Positions 42,057 to 63,351 of a DNA stretch of 64,000 nucleotides are shown piece after piece (position 1 is the first letter of the stretch; each line of letters begins with the position of its first letter). Location: the IMG/VR virus record IMGVR_UViG_3300042875_000419; one strand, written 5' to 3'. A program made the position numbers and the translations under genes. Source of the DNA: a virus. Lineage: Duplodnaviria; Heunggongvirae; Uroviricota; Caudoviricetes. The notes under the pieces were generated by a model. It was not told where the DNA came from. It saw nothing but the letters and a program-made list of their open reading frames with translations, and searched no databases.

Positions 42057-42160
42057 AATATATTATAACATAAACCAAGTAGAATGGCAAGTGTTATTTC
42101 ACGTTTGTTGCAAAAAAACAACAGAAAAAGACGCACCAGGAACGTCCTGGAGCGCCTAGG

Positions 42161-45495: not shown

Positions 45496-45875
45496 TACAC
45501 AGTCTCAGCAACTTGTTCGGTTACTTGTACGGCAACTTGTGCGGTTTTAGTTTTACCGATATAACGACCTTCAGGAGAGAATTCGTCAAAGTTTACCAAC
45601 TGATATGCAGTCACTTTTCGACCATCTTTGTAAACACGGACAATTCCACCATCTTTGCGGATGTTGTAGATGTTTGTGGAGAGGCGATAGAGAACACCTT
45701 CTTGGTCACTGCCTTTGAAGCAAGCCTCAATCTCAGCGGGAGAGACAGGCTTGCCAGAGAGCATAACGCAAGCAATTTTTTCGTGACGGTTGATTTTAGT
45801 GGTAGTACGCATAATATATCCTTTGAGAAAAAGTTTACCAGATTCAATTGTAACAGAGTGACAGTCTGGTGGCAA
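45495..45875 (-). CDS. Hypothetical protein (126 aa), translationally coupled (TAATG) to the NTase gene.
   Basis: ORF only. Confidence 0.4.
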   Translation of the reverse strand: MPPDCHSVTIESGKLFLKGYIMRTTTKINRHEKIACVMLSGKPVSPAEIEACFKGSDQEGVLYRLSTNIYNIRKDGGIVRVYKDGRKVTAYQLVNFDEFSPEGRYIGKTKTAQVAVQVTEQVAETV

Positions 45876-47079: not shown

Positions 47080-47108
47080 ATTATATCACAGTTTTTGCCA
47101 GATGGCAA
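47080..47108 (-). promoter_or_regulatory. Sigma70-type promoter TTGCCA-N17-TATAAT driving cobS (minus strand).
   Basis: Reverse complement reads TTGCCATCTGGCAAAAACTGTGATATAAT, about 15 nt upstream of RBS GGAGAAC and the ATG at 47065. Confidence 0.55.
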
Positions 47109-47216
47109 CCATTTTTTGGTAGACATGTTGCATGGAGACAACAATCATGTACCAGTTTATATCCATATTAACCTCTTTCCATTCTTGTTTGTTGCATAAG
47201 TAGGTATGTCCATCCT

Positions 47217-47493: not shown

Positions 47494-47558
47494 CTCTATT
47501 ATACCAGAAACCAAAAAAAAGGCAACCATAAAGATTGCCTTTGTTGTTTTGGTACAAC
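47494..47558 (-). repeat. Terminator-promoter cassette, left copy. A hairpin (aaaggcaa/ttgccttt stem) is flanked by A and T runs. On the minus strand the 3' half of the stem (TTGCCT) serves as the -35, with a 16-nt T-rich spacer and a TATAAT -10.
   Basis: ctctattataccagaaaccaaaaaaaaggcaaccataaagattgcctttgttgttttggtacaaca. About 85% identical to the copy at 48968-49036. Confidence 0.6.
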
Positions 47559-47560
47559 AC

Positions 47561-48946
47561 TTAGACCAGAACTTCTCCGAGTGTCATTTTACTACCTTTT
47601 TTAAGATTGGCAGACTTCGCAACCAATTGGCAGTTATTTGTACCATCGGTACCTTTGGATGGACCACCAAAGGTGTGTGGAACAATGTGGTCTGCCGCCC
47701 ATTTTTCATGGTCGTTAATTTCCTCCTCTGGAATATGTTCACCAGTTATTGGACATACACCAGCTTGGCGTGCCCATGCTTCATACCTTTGTTGTGGTGT
47801 GAAAAGGCGTTCAGAGTCCCGTTGTGCTACGATACCGCTTTCAATAATTTCAAAGTCTTCCATAATGGCTTTATAACGTGCCGTTAATTCTAACTTTGAC
47901 ATTGTATTGCAACATGATGCATATGTACGGAGTTCACCTGATTTTGGAGATTCTACCAGAATCTTTTTACTTCCAAGGCGGCGATTCTCTGTACGCATAA
48001 ACCATTGAAATAGTTTTGCGTCATCGATAATACCAAAATTGTTTTTACGGAGATAATCAATCACCATATAGAAATTCAACATTGTCGAATGGTCTTTAAA
48101 TCCAGTTGTTGCATGTTTCTTGACAATCTTGCACATCGAATCAATACTAGAACTTGCATTCTTAGTTTGTTTTGATACAACAGAATCATCTTCATATGCA
48201 TTATCTTTATCAGATTTTGCAACACCATGTTCAGCACCAAAAGAAGAATAGATGGCAAGACCAACAACAAAATCGTCAATCAATCGGCGCTTCTCTTGTT
48301 TTTCCGTGGTAAATACTTTACGGAATTCATTCTTATGTTTCTTTACAGTGTCACGCACCCAACCAGCAAATGGCACCAAACGTGCATTACGTAATTCTTG
48401 TGCATTCAGTGAAACACCATCATTCACGTTAATGAAAATATTGGACAAATCATTACGTGTGGCAGAAACATACTCAGCAACAGTAATCTCGACACTACTT
48501 TCAATAAAATCTAAAAGAATTTTTGGATGCTTTTTGTATGTGTCATTCTTATCATTGATATCAACGACACCATTGGGCAATGGATATTGACCATGCTTTA
48601 ATTTAACAGAACCATTCAGATATTGGTCGATTGTGATAGTACGGTTATTTCCGTCAATGGAAATCCATTCAAAACCTTTTTGAAGCCAATCATTGTAGTA
48701 TTCATAATCTTTTGATTCTACCATGCATTTGTCCATACACTCTTTGATATTAGCAACAACAATTTTTGATGGTGCCATACCAGTAATAAGTGAGGTCATA
48801 TATGCTGTGGCTTGTTTTTCTTCCCATCGACTTTCAGATTGAAAAGATGTATCAAGAGCAACTCTTTCCCTAAAATACCGCATATTGGTGGAAATAAGTT
48901 TCATTGTACGATTCAACGCTACTGTTACACTATGTTGTTTTGCCAT
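47561..48946 (-). CDS. DUF262 (ParB-like nuclease, DGQQR-type) plus C-terminal HNH/DUF1524 His-Me finger: GmrSD-like nuclease. Start taken at Met 48946.
   Basis: N-terminal ISIDGNNRTITI (DGQQR-like). C-terminal DHIVPHTFGGPSKGTDGTNNCQLVAKSANLKKGSK (H-N-H). The track ORF start at 49000 would overlap the right repeat, so the internal MAKQ start is preferred. Confidence 0.65.
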   Translation of the reverse strand: MAKQHSVTVALNRTMKLISTNMRYFRERVALDTSFQSESRWEEKQATAYMTSLITGMAPSKIVVANIKECMDKCMVESKDYEYYNDWLQKGFEWISIDGNNRTITIDQYLNGSVKLKHGQYPLPNGVVDINDKNDTYKKHPKILLDFIESSVEITVAEYVSATRNDLSNIFINVNDGVSLNAQELRNARLVPFAGWVRDTVKKHKNEFRKVFTTEKQEKRRLIDDFVVGLAIYSSFGAEHGVAKSDKDNAYEDDSVVSKQTKNASSSIDSMCKIVKKHATTGFKDHSTMLNFYMVIDYLRKNNFGIIDDAKLFQWFMRTENRRLGSKKILVESPKSGELRTYASCCNTMSKLELTARYKAIMEDFEIIESGIVAQRDSERLFTPQQRYEAWARQAGVCPITGEHIPEEEINDHEKWAADHIVPHTFGGPSKGTDGTNNCQLVAKSANLKKGSKMTLGEVLV

Positions 48947-48967
48947 TTTAGGTCCAATTATTGAAAA

Positions 48968-49036
48968 CTCTATTATATACCATATATAAAAAAAAGGCAA
49001 CCATAAAGATTGCCTTTTGTTGTTTTTTTACAACAT
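48968..49036 (-). repeat. Terminator-promoter cassette, right copy. Same hairpin; -35 TTGCCT, 17-nt spacer, TATAAT. Drives the DUF262-HNH gene.
   Basis: ctctattatataccatatataaaaaaaaggcaaccataaagattgccttttgttgtttttttacaaca. Confidence 0.6.
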
Positions 49037-49445: not shown

Positions 49446-49906
49446 ATTTCATTAAAGCCTTCTTCCAATGTGGGTTCTTCCCACCTATCAATCATAGATT
49501 GTAGTACCTCCGATGGTATCACTTTTCCAGGTCGGCTGGCAAGCCTTTTCTGGAGTTCTTCCGGCTCTGGGATCCGAAAAACCACAGCAATCGCATAATA
49601 TTCCGGGAGCATTCGGAATTTCTTCGCCCTTGTGGCAATAGTGGTAGAGGTTTGGTCCCAGATAATGTCCTTTCCCACATCACGTGCGGCATTCACGGCA
49701 CCTGCCATCCTTGTAACGGCTACGGGCATGTATTCTTCAAACACTTCGGTATAGGTTTTACCAACACTTTCAGCCCATTCTTCCACATACTTGTCGGTGG
49801 AAATGTACGCACAATCTTTCATCCAAAACTCTTGGTTCTTCACCCAAGTGGACTTTCCAGAACCTGGTACACCGACCAGCATGTATAGTTTAGGTTTTTT
49901 GTTCAT
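49433..49906 (-). CDS. P-loop nucleotide/nucleoside kinase-like protein (AAA_33-like, 157 aa).
   Basis: Walker A MLVGVPGSGKST. Small size and no Walker B DExx motif, which is typical of kinases. Confidence 0.5.
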   Translation of the reverse strand: MNKKPKLYMLVGVPGSGKSTWVKNQEFWMKDCAYISTDKYVEEWAESVGKTYTEVFEEYMPVAVTRMAGAVNAARDVGKDIIWDQTSTTIATRAKKFRMLPEYYAIAVVFRIPEPEELQKRLASRPGKVIPSEVLQSMIDRWEEPTLEEGFNEIWRT

Positions 49907-50244: not shown

Positions 50245-50678
50245 TTATATTCTCTTTTCATATAAGAATCACGAATCGCTCTTGCATCATGAAGTGCATT
50301 ATGTGGCACCAATGATTCATACTCAATACTAAAGTTGAGTTCAAACTTAATATTCGTTGGCATTACAATTCTCTCACCGGGACCTGTAATCATTGCTTCA
50401 CAGAAATATCGAATATCATCTGGCCAATCTGCAACGATTATGATTTCGTCATATTCAATATTCAGGAGGTACCTTGAGAATGAGAGTTGAAACTCTTGCC
50501 GAGTAACCGGAGGCTGAAAAAGGTGAGGCACCACATTCTCGCGCACCCATGGGTCCAGCTGGTCATTCATCTCCAGTTCCACATAGAATTCGGGTTTAGA
50601 ATCATTCTCTGGCACCAGAGCCATCGACATTAGTTTACCACCAAAGCCATTAAATTCAGTATCAAGAAAAAATCTCAT
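50241..50678 (-). CDS. Hypothetical protein (145 aa).
   Basis: ORF with overlapping junctions. Confidence 0.4.
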   Translation of the reverse strand: MRFFLDTEFNGFGGKLMSMALVPENDSKPEFYVELEMNDQLDPWVRENVVPHLFQPPVTRQEFQLSFSRYLLNIEYDEIIIVADWPDDIRYFCEAMITGPGERIVMPTNIKFELNFSIEYESLVPHNALHDARAIRDSYMKREYK

Positions 50679-50905
50679 TTATAATCCTTACCAAAAATCT
50701 TGTGAATACACATCTTGTTACCAACACCATCCTCACGGTCGGCAATCGTATTCATATCAAACTCCGATGGATAATGACGGAGCAGTGACTTTGCATCCCT
50801 CCGAACGGATAGAGGCACACGTGGTGTTTTCTTTGGATCAAGTAGTGAGATAAGAAACTTTTCAGTTCGAATCACCGCACTAGTACGTTCTACAGGTACA
50901 GTCAT
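50675..50905 (-). CDS. Hypothetical protein (76 aa).
   Basis: ORF with overlapping junctions. Confidence 0.35.
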   Translation of the reverse strand: MTVPVERTSAVIRTEKFLISLLDPKKTPRVPLSVRRDAKSLLRHYPSEFDMNTIADREDGVGNKMCIHKIFGKDYK

Positions 50906-51973: not shown

Positions 51974-52211
51974 GAGATTTCCTTTTCAAGTGTTTGTGTG
52001 TCTATTGTACCAGAGTCCTTGGTACTTGGCAAGTCAGCTAGAAGTTCTCATTTATTGAATGATTCAATCCATGCAACCAGAACCTTCCTAGCTTCGGTGC
52101 GAGAAATACCGAATTCAGTTTCCAGATACGGTGCCGCACCCCACATATTGGTGGCACCAGAATCCCGTAGTGCAACGAGATAATCAAAATATTCTTTAGT
52201 TTGTTCGTCCA

Positions 52212-53223: not shown

Positions 53224-53389
53224 GAGCAGGATAAACCGCTTGAAATGTCATTCCGTTAGTATTAGAATAACGGAGTTTCAAGAATGCACGAACCTTGGAA
53301 ACTGATTCAAAATAACCAGTAGCTTCAATGAATGAACCGTCAAAATAAACAGAGTATTGTTTCATAAAAAAGTCCTTGTTGTGTTTCAA
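53198..53389 (-). CDS. Hypothetical protein (63 aa).
   Basis: ORF directly downstream of promoter copy 53398-53425. Confidence 0.35.
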   Translation of the reverse strand: MKHNKDFFMKQYSVYFDGSFIEATGYFESVSKVRAFLKLRYSNTNGMTFQAVYPALEQTVYEV

Positions 53390-53397
53390 TAGAGAGA

Positions 53398-53425
53398 ATT
53401 ATACAGGTTCCGTAGAGAATGGCAA
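53398..53425 (-). promoter_or_regulatory. Sigma70-type promoter module copy (TTGCCA-N16-TATAAT, minus strand).
   Basis: Reverse complement reads TTGCCATTCTCTACGGAACCTGTATAAT. The CCGGTCAAGTATTG element lies nearby at 53451-53464. Confidence 0.5.
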
Positions 53426-53588
53426 CCTACTAGAAAAGTTCTCCATCCGTCCGGTCAAGTATTGAGAAATAAGAATTTGAATAAATGGTAAAATATGGGA
53501 ATTATAAAGATTGTCCACATGAATACAAAAAGAAAAATGAAAACCGCTTTAAGTATATTAAGTATAAAGCCAAAAAAATCAAACATAA

Positions 53589-53849
53589 TTACCGCTTATA
53601 ATGAACAGGGCGCTCATAACGACCATCAGAATCCCGATAGAGAGAAACATAATGACCGTGCTTTGAACCATCATCAAAAGTATATGAGAAAGAAGAATCG
53701 TAAGAGAGCGGAGGGAAGTTAAGTTCCCAAGATTCCAATAATCCTTCTGATTCTAATGCAGAATTCAGAGTGGGAAAATAGTTTTGTTTTGAAACTTTAT
53801 ACATTGAATAAATCTCCATACATTTCTTCATCAAACGAATCAAAATCAT
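53589..53849 (-). CDS. Hypothetical protein (86 aa).
   Basis: ORF. Preferred over the overlapping plus ORF 53495..53722. Confidence 0.35.
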   Translation of the reverse strand: MILIRLMKKCMEIYSMYKVSKQNYFPTLNSALESEGLLESWELNFPPLSYDSSFSYTFDDGSKHGHYVSLYRDSDGRYERPVHYKR

Positions 53850-54039
53850 TCCGAATCCATTCGATGGTGTATCCGTTCAGTGCATAGTTATCAGCCATAG
53901 CCTGGAGACGGCGGAGGGCTTGTTCAGCATTCAGACCCATGCTTGCCATTAGGCTCAGGTTGCTCCAGTGAGCAAAGTTATTGGAGTCCTTATGTGCGGA
54001 GACTTGAATGAATTGTTTGGGTGTGTTTGTTTGTGTCAT
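53797..54039 (-). CDS. Hypothetical protein (80 aa). First gene downstream of the DnaA-box/promoter region.
   Basis: ATG at 54039 lies 7 nt downstream of the TATAAT at 54047-54052. Confidence 0.4.
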   Translation of the reverse strand: MTQTNTPKQFIQVSAHKDSNNFAHWSNLSLMASMGLNAEQALRRLQAMADNYALNGYTIEWIRNDFDSFDEEMYGDLFNV

Positions 54040-54046
54040 GGATGGT

Positions 54047-54074
54047 ATTATAGCGGTACTGGTAGGAATGGCAA
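54047..54074 (-). promoter_or_regulatory. Sigma70-type promoter module copy (TTGCCA-N16-TATAAT, minus strand) with the DnaA-box array 45-90 bp upstream.
   Basis: Reverse complement reads TTGCCATTCCTACCAGTACCGCTATAATACCATCCATG. Confidence 0.55.
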
Positions 54075-54118
54075 TGGAATATTTTGCGGAAAACTTCGTC
54101 TGTTGTATAAAAGAGACT

Positions 54119-54161
54119 GTGGATAAGTGTGTGGATAAGTTGTGGATAAGTTGTGGATATC
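54119..54161. promoter_or_regulatory. Array of four co-oriented DnaA boxes with 11-12 bp phasing. Three are perfect TGTGGATAA (i.e. TTATCCACA); the fourth is TGTGGATAT.
   Basis: ctgTGTGGATAAgtgTGTGGATAAgtTGTGGATAAgtTGTGGATATc, read directly from the sequence. Confidence 0.6.
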
Positions 54162-54485
54162 TTTGAGGACCTTAATAACTGACCAGTCAGTCAGTAGGTC
54201 GCTGGATGTGTCGCGGTGTGTCGGAAGTGTTGGGTTGCTATTTAGTCTTAGTTGCTGGCTGCCAACGCCTGAAAATTTCACAGAGTGTCTCAGAGGTGAC
54301 AGCACGTTTCCGCACGTTCCAATGGGTTCCAGTGGGTTCCAGCACGGTTTGGAATGTTTTGCTCTGTGTGGGTCTCAGAATGTCTCAGAGTGGTGCTGGA
54401 TGCCCATTGGAAAACCATCAGGCAGCCTCTACGTCCACCCCCAGTCTTGCTGTTCGAACCAATGGATCCATTGTACTCTAAAAAA

Positions 54486-54518
54486 GACCACCTGGCAACC
54501 ACCAGGTGTCTCATCTAC
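54486..54518 (-). terminator. Rho-independent terminator (7-bp stem cacctgg/ccaggtg, loop caacca, T-run on the minus strand) ending the minus early operon of the GC-rich island.
   Basis: aaaaaagaccacctggcaaccaccaggtg, 7 nt downstream of the stop at 54525. Confidence 0.6.
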
Positions 54519-54524
54519 GCAACA

Positions 54525-54746
54525 TCACTCCTCTTCGGAGAATCCTTCAATCAGCACTATTTGGTCCTCATAATAGTTCCGTTCCTCCTCCATGCACAGG
54601 TTGCCCTCGACCTCGAACACCAGGTCCGTGGCTGTCTTTTCGTCACATCCAGTGGAGGTCATAACGAATTGAATAATGTCCTCAAACGTATCACCATTGG
54701 TGATGCACGATTCGATATCGATAATCAAGTCTTTAAATTTGCTCAT
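54525..54746 (-). CDS. Small acidic protein (73 aa).
   Basis: ORF in the GC-rich island. Confidence 0.4.
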   Translation of the reverse strand: MSKFKDLIIDIESCITNGDTFEDIIQFVMTSTGCDEKTATDLVFEVEGNLCMEEERNYYEDQIVLIEGFSEEE

Positions 54747-54870
54747 TAGTCGCTTTCATTTTGTGTGTGGTGCGGGCGGTGAATGTAATATCAGGAATTT
54801 TATGCTCTCTCCGAGCCAACCAATTCACCATATACTTCCAACCAAATGCTTGAGTGTTTGTCATAATCAT
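54733..54870 (-). CDS. Small protein (45 aa) with AAAGGA RBS. The track ORF start at 54930 was rejected.
   Basis: ctataAAGGAatgattATG. The longer ORF overlaps the ATPase gene. Confidence 0.3.
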   Translation of the reverse strand: MIMTNTQAFGWKYMVNWLARREHKIPDITFTARTTHKMKATNEQI

Positions 54871-54886
54871 TCCTTTATAGTAAAAA

Positions 54887-55768
54887 TCAACCGCAGATGG
54901 TGTATTCTGCAAGGTCTTTCCACTTGGCACCAGCAGACTTGCGGATTTTAGTGGTCTGGATGAGTGTACGGAGTGACAACTCTTTCACCTCATCTTGGAG
55001 GTTGTCAATCAGGTCCAGTGCATCGGACTTTTCTGTCTTCGAATACTCAGGCATAAACTCTGGGAGGGACACCAGGTGGCGCATACGCTCCACTTTTTGC
55101 TCCGTTGTCATTGTCAGGTCAACAGCCATCGAACGGGTGATGATGGCTTGGTCCATCGAATCAGAGGACAGGTTAGAGATAAACACCACCCGGCCTTTGA
55201 ATTCAAAGGATTGTGGGAGTTCGTCATCCTTCATGTCGGCACGCCATGAGATGACACGGCGGGAGTAGGAGTCCAGAGCACCTTTGAGCAGGTTCAGAGA
55301 CACTGGATCCTTCAGCACCGAGTCGCAGTCGTCAAAAACAACCACGCCGTCCTTGTTTTCATACAGTGTACGGTACAGGCCCTTTGGAGTGGAGTAGCCC
55401 TTGATAACACGGTAGGACTTGGTGGTGTTGATTTTGCCACCGACCTCGAATTCATCCAGGAGGGTGACATCCTTCATGCCGGCATCATTCAGTGCCTTGG
55501 TGACGGTATGGGACTTGCCGAGACCACCGGGACCAGATACAACCACCGAGGACTGGTCACCTTTCACCAACATGGCGACCATGTCGGAGACAAAGCCGAA
55601 CCGCTGGTTGATGGTGAAGCGGGACTCCTTGACATTGACAGGAGCACCACCGGTGGCACCTGTAGCCTTGCGGATCACATAGTCCATGTGTTCCTTTTTG
55701 GCACGCTTGACCACCTTGCCATTGATGTTGGCAACGTATTTACCACCGACAAACTTCACTTCAATCAT
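54887..55768 (-). CDS. P-loop NTPase (AAA+/RecA-like core, 294 aa from Met 55768), possibly replication-associated.
   Basis: Walker A VVVSGPGGLGKSHTV, Walker B VVVFDDCD, sensor-like VVFISNL. The true start is inferred because promoter copy 55838-55866 lies inside the longer track ORF. RBS GAAAGGAAAA. Confidence 0.5.
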   Translation of the reverse strand: MIEVKFVGGKYVANINGKVVKRAKKEHMDYVIRKATGATGGAPVNVKESRFTINQRFGFVSDMVAMLVKGDQSSVVVSGPGGLGKSHTVTKALNDAGMKDVTLLDEFEVGGKINTTKSYRVIKGYSTPKGLYRTLYENKDGVVVFDDCDSVLKDPVSLNLLKGALDSYSRRVISWRADMKDDELPQSFEFKGRVVFISNLSSDSMDQAIITRSMAVDLTMTTEQKVERMRHLVSLPEFMPEYSKTEKSDALDLIDNLQDEVKELSLRTLIQTTKIRKSAGAKWKDLAEYTICG

Positions 55769-55837
55769 AATTTTCCTTTCAATTGCAATACCATGTTGAA
55801 AAACACCACCGGGAGAGGTGCTTTTGAATATGGTATC

Positions 55838-55866
55838 GATTATACCAGAACCAGCAGGTTCTGGCA
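55838..55866 (-). promoter_or_regulatory. Sigma70-type promoter module copy (TTGCCA-N17-TATAAT, minus).
   Basis: Reverse complement reads TTGCCAGAACCTGCTGGTTCTGGTATAAT, adjacent to CCGGTCAAGTATTGG. Confidence 0.55.
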
Positions 55867-55887
55867 ACCAATACTTGACCGGACAGG

Positions 55888-56175
55888 TCAACAATCAGCA
55901 TCAAAATCCGCCCACTCTTGGGCTTCGTCCGGCTGACCGTCATCCTCATCCTCGGTCTCCATCTCATCCTCGGTGAGACCTTCCACGAAAACGTCTTCCT
56001 CGGTCAAGGAATCCACGTAGTCGTTAAAACCGCACCGATAGGCTACCGGGTCGACCTCACGCAGGACCTCGGAAGCGGAATAGGTCATTCCGCACAGTTC
56101 CACCGGACCTTCACAGTCGTCCAGCATCTCATCAAACCATGCATGGGCGGTGCGCTCAGATATTAAACGGGACAT
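55888..56175 (-). CDS. Early protein with a strongly acidic C-terminal tail (95 aa).
   Basis: C-terminus EDEMETEDEDDGQPDEAQEWADFDADC. Promoter copy immediately upstream. Confidence 0.45.
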   Translation of the reverse strand: MSRLISERTAHAWFDEMLDDCEGPVELCGMTYSASEVLREVDPVAYRCGFNDYVDSLTEEDVFVEGLTEDEMETEDEDDGQPDEAQEWADFDADC

Positions 56176-56207
56176 TTTCTTTCCTTTTCTTTCACAATAT
56201 GGATTGG

Positions 56208-56235
56208 ATTATACAGGTTCCGGTAGTATTGTCAA
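56208..56235 (-). promoter_or_regulatory. Sigma70 consensus promoter copy (TTGACA-N16-TATAAT, minus).
   Basis: Reverse complement reads TTGACAATACTACCGGAACCTGTATAAT, preceded by CCGGTCAAGTATTGG. Confidence 0.6.
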
Positions 56236-56255
56236 CCAATACTTGACCGGAATGG

Positions 56256-56468
56256 TCAACTATCAAATTCGCAGGACTGGTCCAGGTACAGGCTCAGTTC
56301 CTCGGCTTGGTTCAGGATTCGAGCCACTTCCATGGCCTCATCCTCACATTGGAACCGTTCTACGGACTCGCCAGTGTGGACACCGTTGGACAATGGGGAC
56401 CAGCGGATCACATGGAAGTCCATGGTTTTGTCGTGGTGTTCTACAGTGTAGGTTTTTGTGTTCATCAT
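56256..56468 (-). CDS. Small protein (71 aa from the MM start).
   Basis: ATG 7 nt downstream of the -10 of promoter copy 56475-56502. Confidence 0.35.
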   Translation of the reverse strand: MMNTKTYTVEHHDKTMDFHVIRWSPLSNGVHTGESVERFQCEDEAMEVARILNQAEELSLYLDQSCEFDS

Positions 56469-56474
56469 GTCTTG

Positions 56475-56502
56475 GATTCTACAGGTTCCAGCAGGTTTGG
56501 CA
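56475..56502 (-). promoter_or_regulatory. Promoter module copy (TTGCCA-N16-TAGAAT, minus).
   Basis: Reverse complement reads TTGCCAAACCTGCTGGAACCTGTAGAAT. Confidence 0.45.
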
Positions 56503-56596
56503 ACCATTTTGGATATACTTGACCGGAGTGCTGGGTTATTATTATGACGCCCAGCCTCCACGTCCACCCCGCCTTCCGCTTCGAATCATGGTACCA

Positions 56597-56624
56597 ATTA
56601 TACCAGAACCAGCAGGGAAGGCAA
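56597..56624 (-). promoter_or_regulatory. Promoter module copy (TTGCCT-N16-TATAAT, minus), tandem with the previous copy.
   Basis: Reverse complement reads TTGCCTTCCCTGCTGGTTCTGGTATAAT. Confidence 0.45.
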
Positions 56625-56630
56625 GAGATA

Positions 56631-56655
56631 ACCCAGCCCGTTGCTGGGTTATTAG
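56631..56655 (-). terminator. Hairpin aacccagc-ccgtt-gctgggtt directly after the stop of the acidic protein gene. Putative terminator.
   Basis: 8-bp inverted repeat seen in the sequence. Weak U-tract. Confidence 0.35.
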
Positions 56656-56656
56656 A

Positions 56657-56893
56657 TTAGAACGAATCGATTATTTCCTGAATATCGTCAAAATTCTCAG
56701 AAATAAGAGAACTTTCGTATTCATCGTCTTCTTCATTGTAATCATAATATATCTCGAAGACCGGGGTTTCTAATACTTCTTCATCAATTGGGTGAACATA
56801 GTGTTCAATATAGTATGCAACCTGAACATTGTCAGAATTGAATACAGAATACTCATTACATTCCACACTTGAATACGTTTGTACTACTTTCAT
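56657..56893 (-). CDS. Highly acidic small protein (78 aa).
   Basis: D/E/Y-rich (EEVLETPVFEIYYDYNEEDDEYESSLISENFDDIQEIIDSF). Confidence 0.45.
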   Translation of the reverse strand: MKVVQTYSSVECNEYSVFNSDNVQVAYYIEHYVHPIDEEVLETPVFEIYYDYNEEDDEYESSLISENFDDIQEIIDSF

Positions 56894-56924
56894 TTTTCAC
56901 TTTCGTTTCGTTTACAATGATGTT

Positions 56925-56952
56925 ATTATATCATAGCAGGCCAGAATGGCAA
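56925..56952 (-). promoter_or_regulatory. Promoter module copy (TTGCCA-N16-TATAAT, minus) for the acidic protein gene.
   Basis: Reverse complement reads TTGCCATTCTGGCCTGCTATGATATAAT. Confidence 0.5.
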
Positions 56953-56992
56953 TATAGCACAATAGTTCTCCATTCTTCCGGTCAACTATTGG

Positions 56993-57020
56993 TTGCCATT
57001 CTCGCTGGTTCTGGTACAAT
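56993..57020 (+). promoter_or_regulatory. Promoter module copy (TTGCCA-N16-TACAAT, plus), first of four plus-strand copies. Divergent from copy 56925-56952.
   Basis: CCGGTCAACTATTGG-TTGCCATTCTCGCTGGTTCTGGTACAAT-CCATTCCATG. Confidence 0.55.
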
Positions 57021-57027
57021 CCATTCC

Positions 57028-57228
57028 ATGATAAAATCAATTCAACCAACCGACCGCAAGGTCCAAGCCCAATACCTGCTGGACGGTGTATTGGTTACCA
57101 TTTGCAAGCCTGCCCGCCCCCGTAGGTCGGAACGGACTTGGTCGGCTGGTGCCAAGTATTCGGTCGCCAACCTTGGAGCCAAGGCTGCCACCCTTCGGAA
57201 TGTTGGTCTCTCCCATGCCAAAGGTTGA
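57028..57228 (+). CDS. Small basic protein (66 aa). Its ATG is 7 nt downstream of the -10, so the mRNA may be leaderless.
   Basis: Internal Met of track ORF 56869..57228. Fits exactly between promoter copies. Confidence 0.35.
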   Translation: MIKSIQPTDRKVQAQYLLDGVLVTICKPARPRRSERTWSAGAKYSVANLGAKAATLRNVGLSHAKG

Positions 57229-57256
57229 CCAATCCGGTCAAGTATCCAAAGGATGG

Positions 57257-57284
57257 TTGCCATTCTCGCTGGTTCTGGTACAAT
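57257..57284 (+). promoter_or_regulatory. Promoter module copy (TTGCCA-N16-TACAAT, plus).
   Basis: CCGGTCAAGTATCC...TTGCCATTCTCGCTGGTTCTGGTACAAT-CCATTCCATA. Confidence 0.55.
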
Positions 57285-57315
57285 CCATTCCATAGTAAAT
57301 TGAAAAGGTTGCAAA

Positions 57316-57558
57316 ATGTACCAGCCCCATATAGTCCTCCGGCACTGCCGCTCCTACCTCCGGAAAGCCCGTGGCGGATTCTACGCCGAGGTGTACCATG
57401 GTCAAGAGGCTATTTTCCAGGTGTATGCCGATGGAACGGTGCTTTGGTTGCATCCTTCCCAAGGCTTGGTCCGACCTGAAAATGTAATGGGTGGGCGGCT
57501 CCTCTCCCATGTACGGTACCAAGGTCGGTCCCTCCTGCGGTATCATGGCGTACAATAA
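57316..57558 (+). CDS. Small basic protein (80 aa).
   Basis: ORF downstream of the promoter copy, with leader containing aaaagg. Confidence 0.35.
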   Translation: MYQPHIVLRHCRSYLRKARGGFYAEVYHGQEAIFQVYADGTVLWLHPSQGLVRPENVMGGRLLSHVRYQGRSLLRYHGVQ

Positions 57559-57590
57559 CCCAGCCAGCCGGTCAACTATTCCACGGATGG

Positions 57591-57618
57591 TTGCCATTTC
57601 CTCTGGTTCTGGTATAAT
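57591..57618 (+). promoter_or_regulatory. Promoter module copy (TTGCCA-N16-TATAAT, plus).
   Basis: CCGGTCAACTATTCC...TTGCCATTTCCTCTGGTTCTGGTATAAT. Confidence 0.55.
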
Positions 57619-57648
57619 CCAACCATCAAATCAAGCAAAGGTCAAAAA

Positions 57649-58398
57649 ATGAATTTACTCTCCACTGGTAACCCTAAGGTCCTCAAAGGCCTGGCTCAGG
57701 GTTACAATACCTACATCCTGCACCTCGCTCCAGCCGACCTGTCCGGTTTTGAGACCTGCGCCAAACGGACCAAAGGTTGCACGGCTGCCTGCCTGAACCT
57801 TGCTGGCCGTGGCGGTATGTTCAAAAAAGGTGAAACCACCAACATTATCCAGCAGGCTCGAATCCGCAAAACCCAAATGTTTTTCGAGGCTCGCACCGGT
57901 TTTATGGAATGGCTGGTCAAGGATATTGAATTGGCTATTAAACAATCGGCTAAAATCAATATGGTTCCAGTGATTCGCCTTAATGGCACTTCGGACCTAG
58001 CCTTTGAAAAGTATGCCGCCATCCGTAATGGCGTGGAATATAAAAACATTTTCATGGCATTCCCTGAAATTCAATTCTACGATTATACCAAGATTCTCGG
58101 ACGTAAAATTGCCGATTATCCCAATTATCACCTGACATTCTCAGCCGCCGATGGTAATGATTCGGACGTTGAAAAGGCTATTGCCCAAGGTTATAATGTA
58201 GCCGTGGTGTTTGGTATTAAAAAGACCCTCCCAATGCCGGCTGATTATCTGAGTATGCCAGTATTTAATGGCGATGAGTCGGACCTCCGTTTTCTGGATC
58301 CAAAAGGCTCCGTTATCGGCTTATATGCCAAAGGCAAAGCCAAAAAAGATACCACTGGTTTTGTAAAGTATCCCGCCATTATGATGGCATCCGTTTAA
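57649..58398 (+). CDS. Three-Cys-motif protein (249 aa). Possibly the phage Gp37/Gp68 (DUF5131) family.
   Basis: N-terminal cluster TCAKRTKGCTAAC (C-x6-C-x3-C). The family assignment is from memory and is not verified. Confidence 0.35.
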   Translation: MNLLSTGNPKVLKGLAQGYNTYILHLAPADLSGFETCAKRTKGCTAACLNLAGRGGMFKKGETTNIIQQARIRKTQMFFEARTGFMEWLVKDIELAIKQSAKINMVPVIRLNGTSDLAFEKYAAIRNGVEYKNIFMAFPEIQFYDYTKILGRKIADYPNYHLTFSAADGNDSDVEKAIAQGYNVAVVFGIKKTLPMPADYLSMPVFNGDESDLRFLDPKGSVIGLYAKGKAKKDTTGFVKYPAIMMASV

Positions 58399-58414
58399 AC
58401 TGAAAGGAAACATT

Positions 58415-58636
58415 ATGTCCAAAATCAAACTCCCATTCGAATGCATGGTTGGAACCGAAAATGAGGTGGTAACCAATCCATTCTCTGGAGAATCAATTAC
58501 ATTATCTCCAGAGGCTGTGGCAGTATATGATACCATTATGGGTTGCCAAATGGTCGGTGATTATAAGAGAATGCAAAAGGGGCTGGATTGGTTTCGCCGT
58601 CATTATGCCCGAGAATATATGGTTCTCCTGGATTGA
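58415..58636 (+). CDS. Hypothetical protein (73 aa).
   Basis: ORF 16 nt after the preceding gene, with AGGAAAC RBS. Confidence 0.4.
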   Translation: MSKIKLPFECMVGTENEVVTNPFSGESITLSPEAVAVYDTIMGCQMVGDYKRMQKGLDWFRRHYAREYMVLLD

Positions 58637-58669
58637 CCCTCCCTCTGGCTGGAGAACTAAGGTACTAGG

Positions 58670-58698
58670 TTGCCATTTTCACGCCCATCCGCCATAAT
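58670..58698 (+). promoter_or_regulatory. Promoter module copy (TTGCCA-N17-CATAAT, plus).
   Basis: TTGCCATTTTCACGCCCATCCGCCATAAT-CCATTCCATG. Confidence 0.45.
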
Positions 58699-58729: not shown

Positions 58730-58927
58730 ATGACAAATCAAGACTTGGCCAAGGCACTGGTGGCTGCCATTCAGGACCGCCAATTCGCCCGTGGCGAGGA
58801 ACTCCACGCCGCCAACTCTTACACCGTTGGCTACCTTGAGGGTCTCATTGGTACACTCTGCCACCTCAGCCCCAAGGCTAAAAAAGAGGTTATGAGTACC
58901 TTGGTTTACATTAACGCAAACAAGTAA
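58730..58927 (+). CDS. Small protein (65 aa) with GAAAGGAAAC RBS. An in-frame ATG also sits right after the -10.
   Basis: MTNQDLAKAL... Internal start of track ORF 58670..58927. Confidence 0.4.
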   Translation: MTNQDLAKALVAAIQDRQFARGEELHAANSYTVGYLEGLIGTLCHLSPKAKKEVMSTLVYINANK

Positions 58928-58938
58928 GGAGTAATGAG

Positions 58939-63270: not shown

Positions 63271-63351
63271 GTGTTTCCTTGTGAGTCTGTAGTATGTATT
63301 ATATCATACCGACAGAAAATGTCAAGTCATGTGTTGTTTTTTTGTCACAAA

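Follow-up and report, generated by a model that had tools for sequence, protein, structure and literature searches.

Recombining sigma70-like promoter cassettes in an uncultured T4-like phage, about one fifth of them with an upstream box resembling IscR Type-1 operators

The closest described counterparts of the locus considered here are the PeSL (promoter-early stem-loop) cassettes, in which a sigma70-like early promoter carries a stem-loop just on its 5' side; they span the interval from one stop codon to the next ATG, lie among ORFans (open reading frames, ORFs, without recognisable family) and border insertions and deletions (PMC2839356, PMC4122927). Such elements are known from the T4-type phages RB49/phi1, T4/PST and KVP40/nt-1 (Arbiol et al. 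2010, PMC2839356; Comeau et al. 2014, PMC4122927). Here, a family of promoters is described from a 64,000-nucleotide (nt) stretch of the viral record IMGVR_UViG_3300042875_000419 (Caudoviricetes), hereafter the window, with emphasis on positions 53398-58698. Judged from the DNA, these are sigma70-like promoters carried in recombining PeSL-like cassettes, about one fifth of which possess a 25-bp box resembling the Type-1 operators of the iron-sulfur sensor IscR, with the IscR of the host as the protein most likely to bind it, an overall reading that is considered moderately probable.

Sites for host regulators in phage promoters have precedents, since NtcA and PhoB boxes occur in the promoters of lytic cyanomyoviruses. 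Leaderless mRNAs are exemplified by that of lambda cI from PRM and are common in Actinobacteria and Deinococcus. In E. coli, the IscR Type-1 consensus is the 25-bp sequence ATASYYGACTRWWWYAGTCRRSTAT, to which characterised Pseudomonas aeruginosa sites are only 68-76% identical (PMC6599224), and CCGAC is a half-site typical of Type-1 sites (PMC8561392). The literature searched contained no relevant report of IscR sites in lytic phage promoters and nothing relevant on leaderless early genes in T4-like phages.

A preliminary description of the window had listed 14 promoter coordinates, all of which prove to be sigma70-like, matching 10-12 of the 12 consensus positions in a consensus scan; the exact form TTGCCA-N16/17-TAYAAT is found 12 times against 0.13 expected from 100 shuffles. 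Further copies absent from that list lie at 54470-54498(-), 52004-52032(-), 45847-45875(-), 42062-42090(-) and 63298-63325(-). On the same strand, each copy is followed by an ORF start 7-70 nt past the -10 hexamer or by a conserved non-coding element. Relatives were recruited by two routes: an exact search for a 15-mer fused to the -35 hexamer, which returned five IMG/VR contigs, and a search guided by the NrdC.10 protein, which returned 23 loci in which that protein is 66-100% identical to the window's. Some related loci align to the window at ~70-90% nucleotide identity. The same promoter type is abundant in them, mostly with an inverted repeat of the TGTTGY-N7-RCAACA or TTGACC/GGTCAA type just 5' of the -35 hexamer, and 177 non-redundant promoters were collected from the window and the 23 related loci (380 kb for the 15-mer scan). 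Every computational test run supports the earlier proposal of a host-sigma70 promoter family with an extra operator-like element, and the copies are read as promoters for the sigma70 RNA polymerase of the host, their use by that polymerase, their early timing and their start sites all being predicted ones.

The conserved module of ~50 bp attributed to this family holds for ~10 copies at 53.4-58.7 kb, which form the repeat families D1-D4 and I1-I16, but not for the copies at 47080, 47498 and 48972, which share little beyond the hexamers and in which a different upstream element, a real terminator hairpin, takes its place. Two spacer families had also been distinguished. Both are real, with ..GGTTCTGG in five window copies and ..GGAACCTG in three, and over the 177 promoters the spacer ends in TCTGG in 39 and in ACCTG in 29-30; much of this conservation, however, appears to be the extended -10 motif, because TGn is present in 89 of the 177 and TG directly abuts the -10 hexamer in 49 more. 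The start box TAYAATCCAWYCCAT is likewise enriched (6 matches at no more than 2 mismatches against 1.6 expected), and both the divergent pair 56952(-)/56993(+) and the tandem pair 56503(-)/56624(-) are found as described. Two near-identical 75-nt stretches, 114 nt apart at 2346 and 2460 (-), both contain TTGCCAACACATCCTTAGTCGGTGGTACAAT and are hence picked up as promoter matches, but have the look of a tandem repeat within a coding region, not of promoters.

The 15-mer that precedes many of the copies is enriched as well, with 8 matches at no more than 3 mismatches against 1.16 expected, 7 of them within 53.4-57.6 kb. It abuts the -35 hexamer at 55867-, 56235- and 56993+, stands 8 nt further upstream at 56503-, 57257+ and 57591+, and is inverted at 53451, while promoter 56952- shares the copy at 56978 with the divergent 56993+. 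Its description as an independent element occurring in either orientation does not hold; the two orientations are rather the two halves of one 25-bp box in fixed register. The 15-mer corresponds to the promoter-proximal half of the box ATAsyyGACC-N5-GGTCrrsTAT together with a 3-nt linker, TGG. Several copies contain the palindrome TTGACC-N5-GGTCAA, the right arm of which opens the 15-mer, and the inverted 15-mers are boxes with a good distal half. In the 380 kb of window and relatives, 38 of 40 matches to the 15-mer are linked to promoters at quantised distances from the -35 hexamer, namely 0 nt (20 matches) or 8-9 nt (6) in the same orientation and 24-26 nt (12) in the opposite one. The box itself, at no more than 3 mismatches, accompanies 34 of the 177 promoters with gaps to the -35 hexamer of 3 nt (16), 11 nt (11) or 12 nt (7) and no others, compared with 26 occurrences in 5000 random 70-mers from the same DNA. 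Boxes with a degenerate proximal half, in which no hairpin is possible, keep the register nonetheless. Two other identities considered for the 15-mer were rejected: it is not A+T-rich, as an UP element would be, and it lacks a -10 hexamer at the right distance on the other strand, as the -35 hexamer of an opposing promoter would require.

With the box delimited, the operator-like element can be given a name, since its sequence points to one half of a 25-bp palindrome matching the IscR Type-1 consensus. The window site at 56239-56263 differs from the E. coli consensus ATASYYGACTRWWWYAGTCRRSTAT at 3 positions against 0.00 such sites expected, and the distal half-site of this window copy, ATAGTTGACC, is identical to the opening 10 nt of site B as footprinted in P. 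aeruginosa. Across the window and its relatives, strand-hits at no more than 3, 4 and 5 mismatches number 8, 18 and 52 against 0.07, 0.8 and 6.7 expected, and the CCGAC half-site variant is present in relatives. The phage form of the box (GACC/GGTC with a free centre), scanned against one genome per species from 185,579 bacterial species, matched at least 120 loci. An IscR homologue, aligned from its first residue, accompanies 47 of the 120 matches listed, and in 46 its start lies no more than 400 nt from the box (tblastn and hidden Markov model searches). NCBIfam names five sampled genes IscR, four of which score above the curated cut-off and are IscR equivalogs. The iscR-adjacent boxes among the matches listed come from Vibrio, Photobacterium, Pseudoalteromonas, Glaciecola, Pusillimonas, Burkholderiaceae and others; the V. 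cholerae site reads ATACTTGACCATTTTGGTCAAGTAT, and that of one symbiont metagenome-assembled genome, ATACCTGACCATTCCGGTCAAGTAT, has a phage-like centre. A second site, containing a -35-like TTGACT, comes 1-4 nt after the box in Vibrio, the same geometry as the 3-nt gap of the phage. Exact boxes are also present on 33 more viral contigs, of which ~22 are relatives of this phage and ~20 have TTGACA-17-TATAAT 10-12 nt away.

The phage box thus shares with iscR operators a 25-bp, partly palindromic layout with ATA/TAT ends and TTGAC or CCGAC half-sites, a GACC/GGTC pattern that is exactly the one upstream of iscR in the genera just named, and a position adjoining a -35-like hexamer, as in the site A of iscR. 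Unlike those operators, it is found in a lytic-type genome and before ORFans rather than iron-sulfur (Fe-S) genes, and it is a single box 5' of the -35 hexamer instead of a pair covering the core promoter, with G+C-richer centres in the window. The arrangement also recalls the NtcA and PhoB boxes, in that a virulent T4-like phage sets the site of a host sensor beside its own promoters, so that phage expression could follow host physiology. It departs from these precedents in that the sensor is an iron-sulfur one rather than one of nitrogen or phosphate, and in that the site belongs to a repeated, recombining cassette at many promoters rather than to one or two metabolic genes.

In their genomic behaviour, the cassettes behave like the PeSL cassettes of T4-type phages, as far as genome comparison can tell. 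The proposed order within a cassette runs from the upstream stop codon through the palindrome and TTGCCA-16/17-TAyAAT, usually with a TG extended -10 motif, to a predicted C-A start site, and would end either in an AUG at +1 (leaderless) or in a leader of 25-70 nt with a Shine-Dalgarno sequence. The TGA of the upstream ORF falls within TTGACC at 53455-57, 55888-90, 56256-58, 57226-28 and 58634-36; the ORFs that end in this way in the box include those of 95 aa (TGA 55888-55890), 70 aa (56256-56258) and 66 aa (57226-57228). Since the cassette copies are repeated, homologous recombination between them would insert, delete or swap the small genes in between. Seven distinct indels relative to L006, L007, L009 and L010 (labels denote related loci) have both borders inside promoter footprints, which make up 10% of the region, with overlaps of 12-74 bp. 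At indel 47562/48964, a terminator-promoter composite stands as a direct repeat on both sides of a GmrSD/HNH endonuclease-like gene (47561-48946, -), whereas L006, L007 and L009 hold the composite once (66-74 bp overlap); this cassette looks like a mobile or defence-related one inserted by the same repeat-mediated route. Indels 56625/56925 (29-bp overlap) and 57290/57568 (57-bp overlap) correspond to the 78-aa and 80-aa ORFans, respectively, and further cassette-bounded indels are 57029/57578 and 56625/57553. L009 and L010 carry two extra cassettes of ~300 bp inserted exactly at 55839-55892 and 56238-56249, that is, inside the box and the -35 hexamer. The genome lacking a cassette retains one hybrid copy of the repeat, a signature of recombination between copies. 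Moreover, the upstream part of the NrdC.10 promoter matches L006 while its spacer and leader match L010 and L008, which indicates a crossover within the box and the -35 hexamer.

The cassettes of the window are best filed as a variant of the PeSL-type promoter cassettes in a distant uncultured T4-like clade. As in PeSLs, a strong sigma70-like promoter has an inverted repeat directly upstream, the unit runs from the stop of a small ORF to the start of the next and is clustered among the ORFans of variable regions, close relatives differ by insertions, deletions and swaps with copies at their borders, and some copies are true terminator-promoter composites. Unlike PeSLs, the -35 hexamer of the window family is TTGCCA, the stems are TTGACC/GGTCAA or TGTTGY/RCAACA, many copies have no foldable stem, the stop codon lies inside the repeat, and some cassettes end in a leaderless AUG rather than a Shine-Dalgarno sequence and an ATG; in one sub-family, the supposed stem-loop has the sequence of a host transcription-factor operator in fixed register. 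This comparison concerns sequence features. An upstream palindrome that is an IscR-type operator at fixed register and an optional leaderless start are not described in the earlier PeSL accounts (PMC2839356, PMC4122927). A second, promoter-independent mode of gene gain and loss is seen in the relatives, whose extra genes of 200-1100 bp stand exactly at stop/start junctions within tightly packed operons (49239, 49894-49906, 50244, 50675-50688, 51324, 58925-58935 and 59266); these junction insertions share only a few bases around the ATG.

If the box of these PeSL-like cassettes is indeed read by the host, [2Fe-2S]-IscR would bind it and tune the promoters to the iron-sulfur status of the cell. 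The effect would most probably be damping, with mild repression or activation also possible; alternatively, the many replicating copies of the box may titrate IscR. A more far-reaching proposal, which is advanced only tentatively, is that a virulent T4-like clade has brought some of its early ORFan promoters under the influence of host IscR through genuine Type-1 operators, set in fixed register beside the -35 hexamer in mobile cassettes. Within that proposal, holo-IscR could gate the genes by the Fe-S or oxygen status of the host, or the phage DNA could act as an IscR sponge that derepresses the isc operon. With an operator inside a recombining cassette, any gene between two cassettes would inherit host-state control.

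Several observations weigh against assigning the box to host IscR or limit what the assignment would imply. Both halves are good in only three of the seven window boxes, and the window centres (ATTCC, TGTCC, AATCC) are less A+T-rich than the WWW of the consensus. The degenerate positions of the scan pattern came from the IscR consensus, the figure of 46-47 of 120 has no scrambled-pattern baseline beside it, and 74 of the 120 listed bacterial loci have no iscR nearby. Repression at every characterised Type-1 site comes about through overlap with the core promoter (PMC8561392), whereas the phage box lies upstream of the -35 hexamer, with its centre at about -51 or -60, and does not overlap the core. 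At P. aeruginosa iscR, a weak, low-impact site A lies at -67 to -43, and the main repressing site is site B (PMC6599224); a box placed 5' of the -35 hexamer, like site A, may therefore repress mildly, activate or titrate IscR. The presence of IscR in the host is an assumption. Some boxes fold as hairpins of 6-10 bp and as weak terminators, an RNA-level role that is compatible with the operator reading. With regard to the cassettes, ~16 other indels lie at gene junctions that have no promoter, mostly in the operon at 49-53 kb and at 58.9-60.1 kb, which makes the cassettes one route of shuffling and not the sole one. The T4 late-promoter motif TATAAATA is not enriched in the window (2 observed against 4 expected), so that a T4-type timing programme is only assumed.

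The rival that survives best, although it appears unlikely, is that the palindrome acts at the RNA level only, as a PeSL stem-loop, a weak terminator or a 3'-end stabiliser of the upstream gene, and that its likeness to IscR sites is coincidental. PeSLs are defined by a terminating stem-loop directly 5' of a sigma70 promoter (PMC2839356, PMC4122927), and the boxes at 56243-56259 and 55875-55891 do score as terminator-like, with 6 pairs and a GTATTGGTTG tail, and fold at -11.3 and -7.7 kcal/mol. The boxes begin at the upstream stop codon, pairing is preserved in symmetric variants (CCGACC/GGTCGG, for instance), and three other promoters have clear terminators overlapping the -35 hexamer (47518-47542, 48992-49018 and 54489-54508; z from about -3.4 to -3.7). 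However, the TTGACC/GGTCAA fold is available to only 3 of the 8 copies in the window, z-scores range from -2.8 to +1.9, two copies with a degenerate half fold worse than shuffled sequences, and 53425-, 56503-, 57591+ and 58670+ have no hairpin at all. The proximal half is constant while the distal arm varies (TAACC, ACCCAGC) without compensating change, the U-tract is missing after the box, and the box is present at the divergent pair, where a terminator is not needed. Nor would an RNA-level role account readily for the exact 20-position pattern finding iscR promoters in 46-47 of the 120 bacterial loci listed.

If the box were the operator of a regulator encoded by the phage itself, such as a winged-helix protein synthesised early or packaged in the virion, it would be the phage's own switch over a subset of its promoters. 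The locking of the box to promoters and its conservation over a wide phage clade fit such a switch, and an unrecognised DNA-binding protein is possible because most neighbouring ORFs belong to no recognisable family; moreover, the window covers 64 kb of a contig of ~152 kb. This explanation is nevertheless judged improbable, given that tblastn found no Rrf2/IscR homologue in the window or the related loci (best E 0.44), that none is present on the IMG/VR contigs of this family (the four viral contigs encoding an IscR relative all have other contig identifiers), and that a box identical to a host-type iscR operator is most simply read by a host protein. Least credible is the view that the conserved flanks are linker homology without a regulatory role, homogenised by recombination or gene conversion and kept because cassettes can move: indel borders and a crossover lie inside cassettes with overlaps of 12-74 bp, a linker role has been proposed for PeSLs (PMC2839356), and the three discrete architectures (gaps of 3, 11 and 12) resemble families by descent, but among copies of box-bearing cassettes the spacer and the first 15 transcribed nt are ~45% identical compared with ~95% for box and hexamers (a contrast that stems partly from how the set was selected), the box persists in phages where the protein of the flanking gene has only 66-75% identity, and homogenisation alone leaves the IscR-operator sequence unexplained.

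Leaderless transcripts had been suggested from copies with an ATG 7 nt past the -10 hexamer, a placement found at 54074-, 56503-, 56624-, 56993+ and 58670+. Over the 177 promoters, an ATG lies 5-9 nt past the -10 hexamer in 43, and in 29 it stands exactly at offset 7 against ~2.8 expected; ~20 such ATGs open long ORFs that have no Shine-Dalgarno-led alternative and often begin ATGATGAA, and their orthologues retain the N-terminus. For the window, the sequence supports the suggestion for three genes, 53797-54039(-), 56256-56468(-) and 57028-57228(+), but it fails for 57257+, where ATA replaces ATG at +1, and for 56624-, where the +1 ATG opens a frame of only 15 codons that is not conserved. It is doubtful for 58670+, as a Shine-Dalgarno-led in-frame ATG 8 codons downstream means that the +1 ATG may be incidental. 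The N-terminus of the 80-aa ORF, MTQTNTPKQFIQVSAHKDSNNF, is conserved in L006, L007, L010 and L011, and the N-terminal residues of the 70-aa ORF are kept in its orthologues (L006, L009 and L010); each shows an in-frame one-codon indel, and these features together argue for translation from that ATG. The GP88 homologue is a leaderless candidate in L013 and Shine-Dalgarno-led in the window. The three window candidates agree with known leaderless mRNAs in having their AUG at the predicted transcription start, 7 nt past the -10 hexamer, and no Shine-Dalgarno sequence; they differ in that the leaderless start is a recurring option of one promoter cassette family, often written ATGATGAA. In the near-identical strains L029-L033, over the equivalent of 53.5-57.3 kb, automatic annotation gives one and the same ORF a length of 70, 83 or 101 aa, and the ATG of the 66-aa ORF at 57028 is nowhere chosen as a start. 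The leaderless candidates appear to be mis-annotated by standard gene callers. The coordinates of the promoters, boxes and associated genes are collected in Table 1.

Table 1. Promoters, IscR-type boxes, candidate leaderless ORFs and cassettes in the window
Feature	Position	Strand	Remarks
Promoter TTGCCA-16-TATAAT	53398..53425	-	32-nt leader with AAGGA, then ATG at 53365
IscR-type box	53438..53462	-	12 nt 5' of -35 at 53425; distal half ATACTTGACC perfect, proximal half GATGGAGAAC degenerate
Promoter TTGCCA-16-TATAAT	54047..54074	-	No IscR-type box; ATG 7 nt past -10
80-aa ORF, leaderless candidate	53797..54039	-	Begins at predicted transcription start; gene-called in L030 and L033
Promoter TTGCCA-17-TACAAT	54470..54498	-	Predicted to drive conserved non-coding element; no ORF
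Intrinsic terminator CACCTGG-loop-CCAGGTG with T-run	54489-54508	-	Overlaps promoter 54470..54498
Promoter TTGCCA-17-TATAAT, extended -10 TGn	55839..55867	-	70-nt leader, then NrdC.10-like ATPase ATG at 55768
Full IscR-type box ATTGTTGACCTGTCCGGTCAAGTAT	55871..55895	-	3 nt 5' of -35; 6 mismatches to Type-1 consensus
Promoter TTGACA-16-TATAAT, 12/12 consensus	56208..56235	-	32-nt leader, then 95-aa ORF ATG at 56175
Best IscR-type box ATAGTTGACCATTCCGGTCAAGTAT	56239..56263	-	3 nt 5' of -35; 3 mismatches to E. coli Type-1 consensus
Promoter TTGCCA-16-TAGAAT	56476..56503	-	ATGATG 7 nt past -10
70-aa ORF, leaderless candidate	56256..56468	-	Begins at predicted transcription start; kept in L006, L009 and L010
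Hybrid box ATAACCCAGCACTCCGGTCAAGTAT	56515..56539	-	11 nt 5' of -35; proximal half perfect, distal half deviant
Promoter TTGCCT-16-TATAAT	56597..56624	-	Predicted to drive ~75-nt non-coding stretch with TTCGAA..GGGGTGGACG..GGCTG element
Promoter TTGCCA-16-TATAAT	56925..56952	-	Divergent partner of 56993+; 31-nt leader, 78-aa ORF ATG at 56893
Box common to divergent promoters	56965..56989	.	3 nt from -35 of 56993+ (good half GGTCAACTAT), 12 nt from -35 of 56952-
Promoter TTGCCA-16-TACAAT, extended -10	56993..57020	+	ATG 7 nt past -10
66-aa ORF, leaderless candidate	57028..57228	+	Begins at predicted transcription start; region kept in L006 and L002
Full IscR-type box AAGGTTGACCAATCCGGTCAAGTAT	57221..57245	+	11 nt 5' of -35; 5 mismatches to Type-1 consensus
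Promoter TTGCCA-16-TACAAT	57257..57284	+	31-nt leader, then 80-aa ORF ATG at 57316
Hybrid box ATAACCCAGCCAGCCGGTCAACTAT	57555..57579	+	11 nt 5' of -35
Promoter TTGCCA-16-TATAAT	57591..57618	+	30-nt leader, then GP88-family gene 57649-58398
Promoter TTGCCA-17-CATAAT	58670..58698	+	+1 ATG in frame with Shine-Dalgarno-led ATG at 58730
Terminator-promoter composite	47498..47542	-	Hairpin AAAGGCAA-loop-TTGCCTTT with T-run; 3' arm = -35 of TTGCCT-16-TATAAT; left flank of GmrSD/HNH insertion
Second copy of the 47498..47542 composite	48972..49018	-	Right flank of GmrSD/HNH insertion
Window-specific cassette, GmrSD_N/HNH endonuclease-like gene (weak matches)	47563..48963	-	Absent from L006, L007 and L009
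Window-specific 78-aa ORFan cassette	56626..56924	-	Absent from L006 and L010; bounded by promoters 56624- and 56952-
Window-specific 80-aa ORFan cassette	57291..57567	+	Absent from L006; bounded by promoters 57257+ and 57591+
Promoter TTGCCA-17-TATAAT	47080..47108	-	Before cobS/MoxR-like ATPase (ATG 47065); core hexamers only, no box

By gene content, the phage behind the window is an uncultured, metagenome-assembled, distant T4-like myovirus. T4-type proteins encoded in the window include baseplate components of the gp6/gp7/gp5/gp48 types (wedge, hub and tail-tube cap) and a gp32-type single-strand DNA-binding protein; an NrdC.10-family ATPase gene lies at 54887-55771(-), and a cobS/MoxR-like ATPase is accompanied by a 732-aa 'peptidase' whose nearest relatives, at ~37% identity, are in cyanomyoviruses. 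Identical proteins were found solely on metagenomic contigs of up to ~152 kb, and a megablast search of 53-59 kb against 50,697 phage records gave no match. Ten flanking small ORFs searched against Pfam gave nothing above threshold (ORFans), a tRNA search of the window found none, and for 40-64 kb Rfam gave, at E up to 1, no more than two matches, both below threshold and both on a terminator. The interval 54000-58000 is a G+C-rich island (48% compared with ~38% in the remaining window) that coincides with the densest run of cassettes and ORFans, which suggests exchange with phages of other base composition.

Other sequence elements accompany the promoters. At 54118-54160 (-), four DnaA-box matches stand in tandem at 11-12-bp spacing; three are perfect (TTATCCACA) and the other is ATATCCACA. 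The whole 64 kb contains only 4 perfect DnaA boxes. The cluster lies 44-86 nt upstream of the leaderless promoter candidate 54074-, within a non-coding stretch (54080-54470) of ~400 bp that has no credible ORF and in which TCTGAGACA and TGGAACCCA are repeated; in L008 and L004, TTATCCACA is likewise near the equivalent promoter. This stretch may be a replication origin or a second cluster of host-factor sites. A conserved non-coding element of ~45 nt, (A/G)TTCGAA..GCA..GGGG(T/A)TGGACG..G.GGCTG, is present at 54423-54462 (-) and 56552-56590 (-), beginning no more than 10 nt from the predicted start of promoters 54498- and 56624-, so that two promoter copies would drive this element and not a gene. 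It occurs in 11 related loci, with two paralogous copies per genome. A structured RNA was rejected as its identity, as RNAalifold gave no consensus structure and no covariation and Rfam no match, and so was a peptide, since reading frames differ between relatives.

A second inverted repeat, TGTTGY-N6-7-RCAACA, stands at 42107-42122, 47127-47142, 47543-47558 and 49019-49034 and at most box-less promoters in relatives, a few to ~20 nt 5' of the -35 hexamer and right after the upstream stop. Its loop is variable and A/T-rich, and the constancy of the stem suggests that this is a further site recognised by its sequence and not simply a hairpin. In addition, a perfect palindrome, ATAACCCAGC-AACGG-GCTGGGTTAT (ATAACCCAGCAACGGGCTGGGTTAT), occupies 56628-56652 and ends 3 nt 5' of the -35 hexamer of 56624-, a register shared with the IscR-type boxes. 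In the hybrid boxes 56515-56539 and 57555-57579, the distal half is the ATAACCC half of this palindrome, which by eye loosely resembles the AWARCCC half of IscR Type-2 sites.

The PeSL-type design, previously described from a few cultured coliphages and vibriophages, is now seen in a distant uncultured T4-like clade, which makes the design look general. An upstream palindrome earlier viewed as a terminator or linker appears here as the operator of a host transcription factor and may thus have a second role. Leaderless starts matter for annotation, since callers disagree on exactly these genes in near-identical contigs, and some IscR-controlled genes would, if this reading is true, be made as leaderless mRNAs. 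The box narrows the probable host to bacteria with IscR-type regulation. If IscR does bind, this would represent a further instance in which a lytic phage reads a host sensor, here one of iron-sulfur, iron or oxygen stress, with a reading device that is portable and would spread with each cassette.

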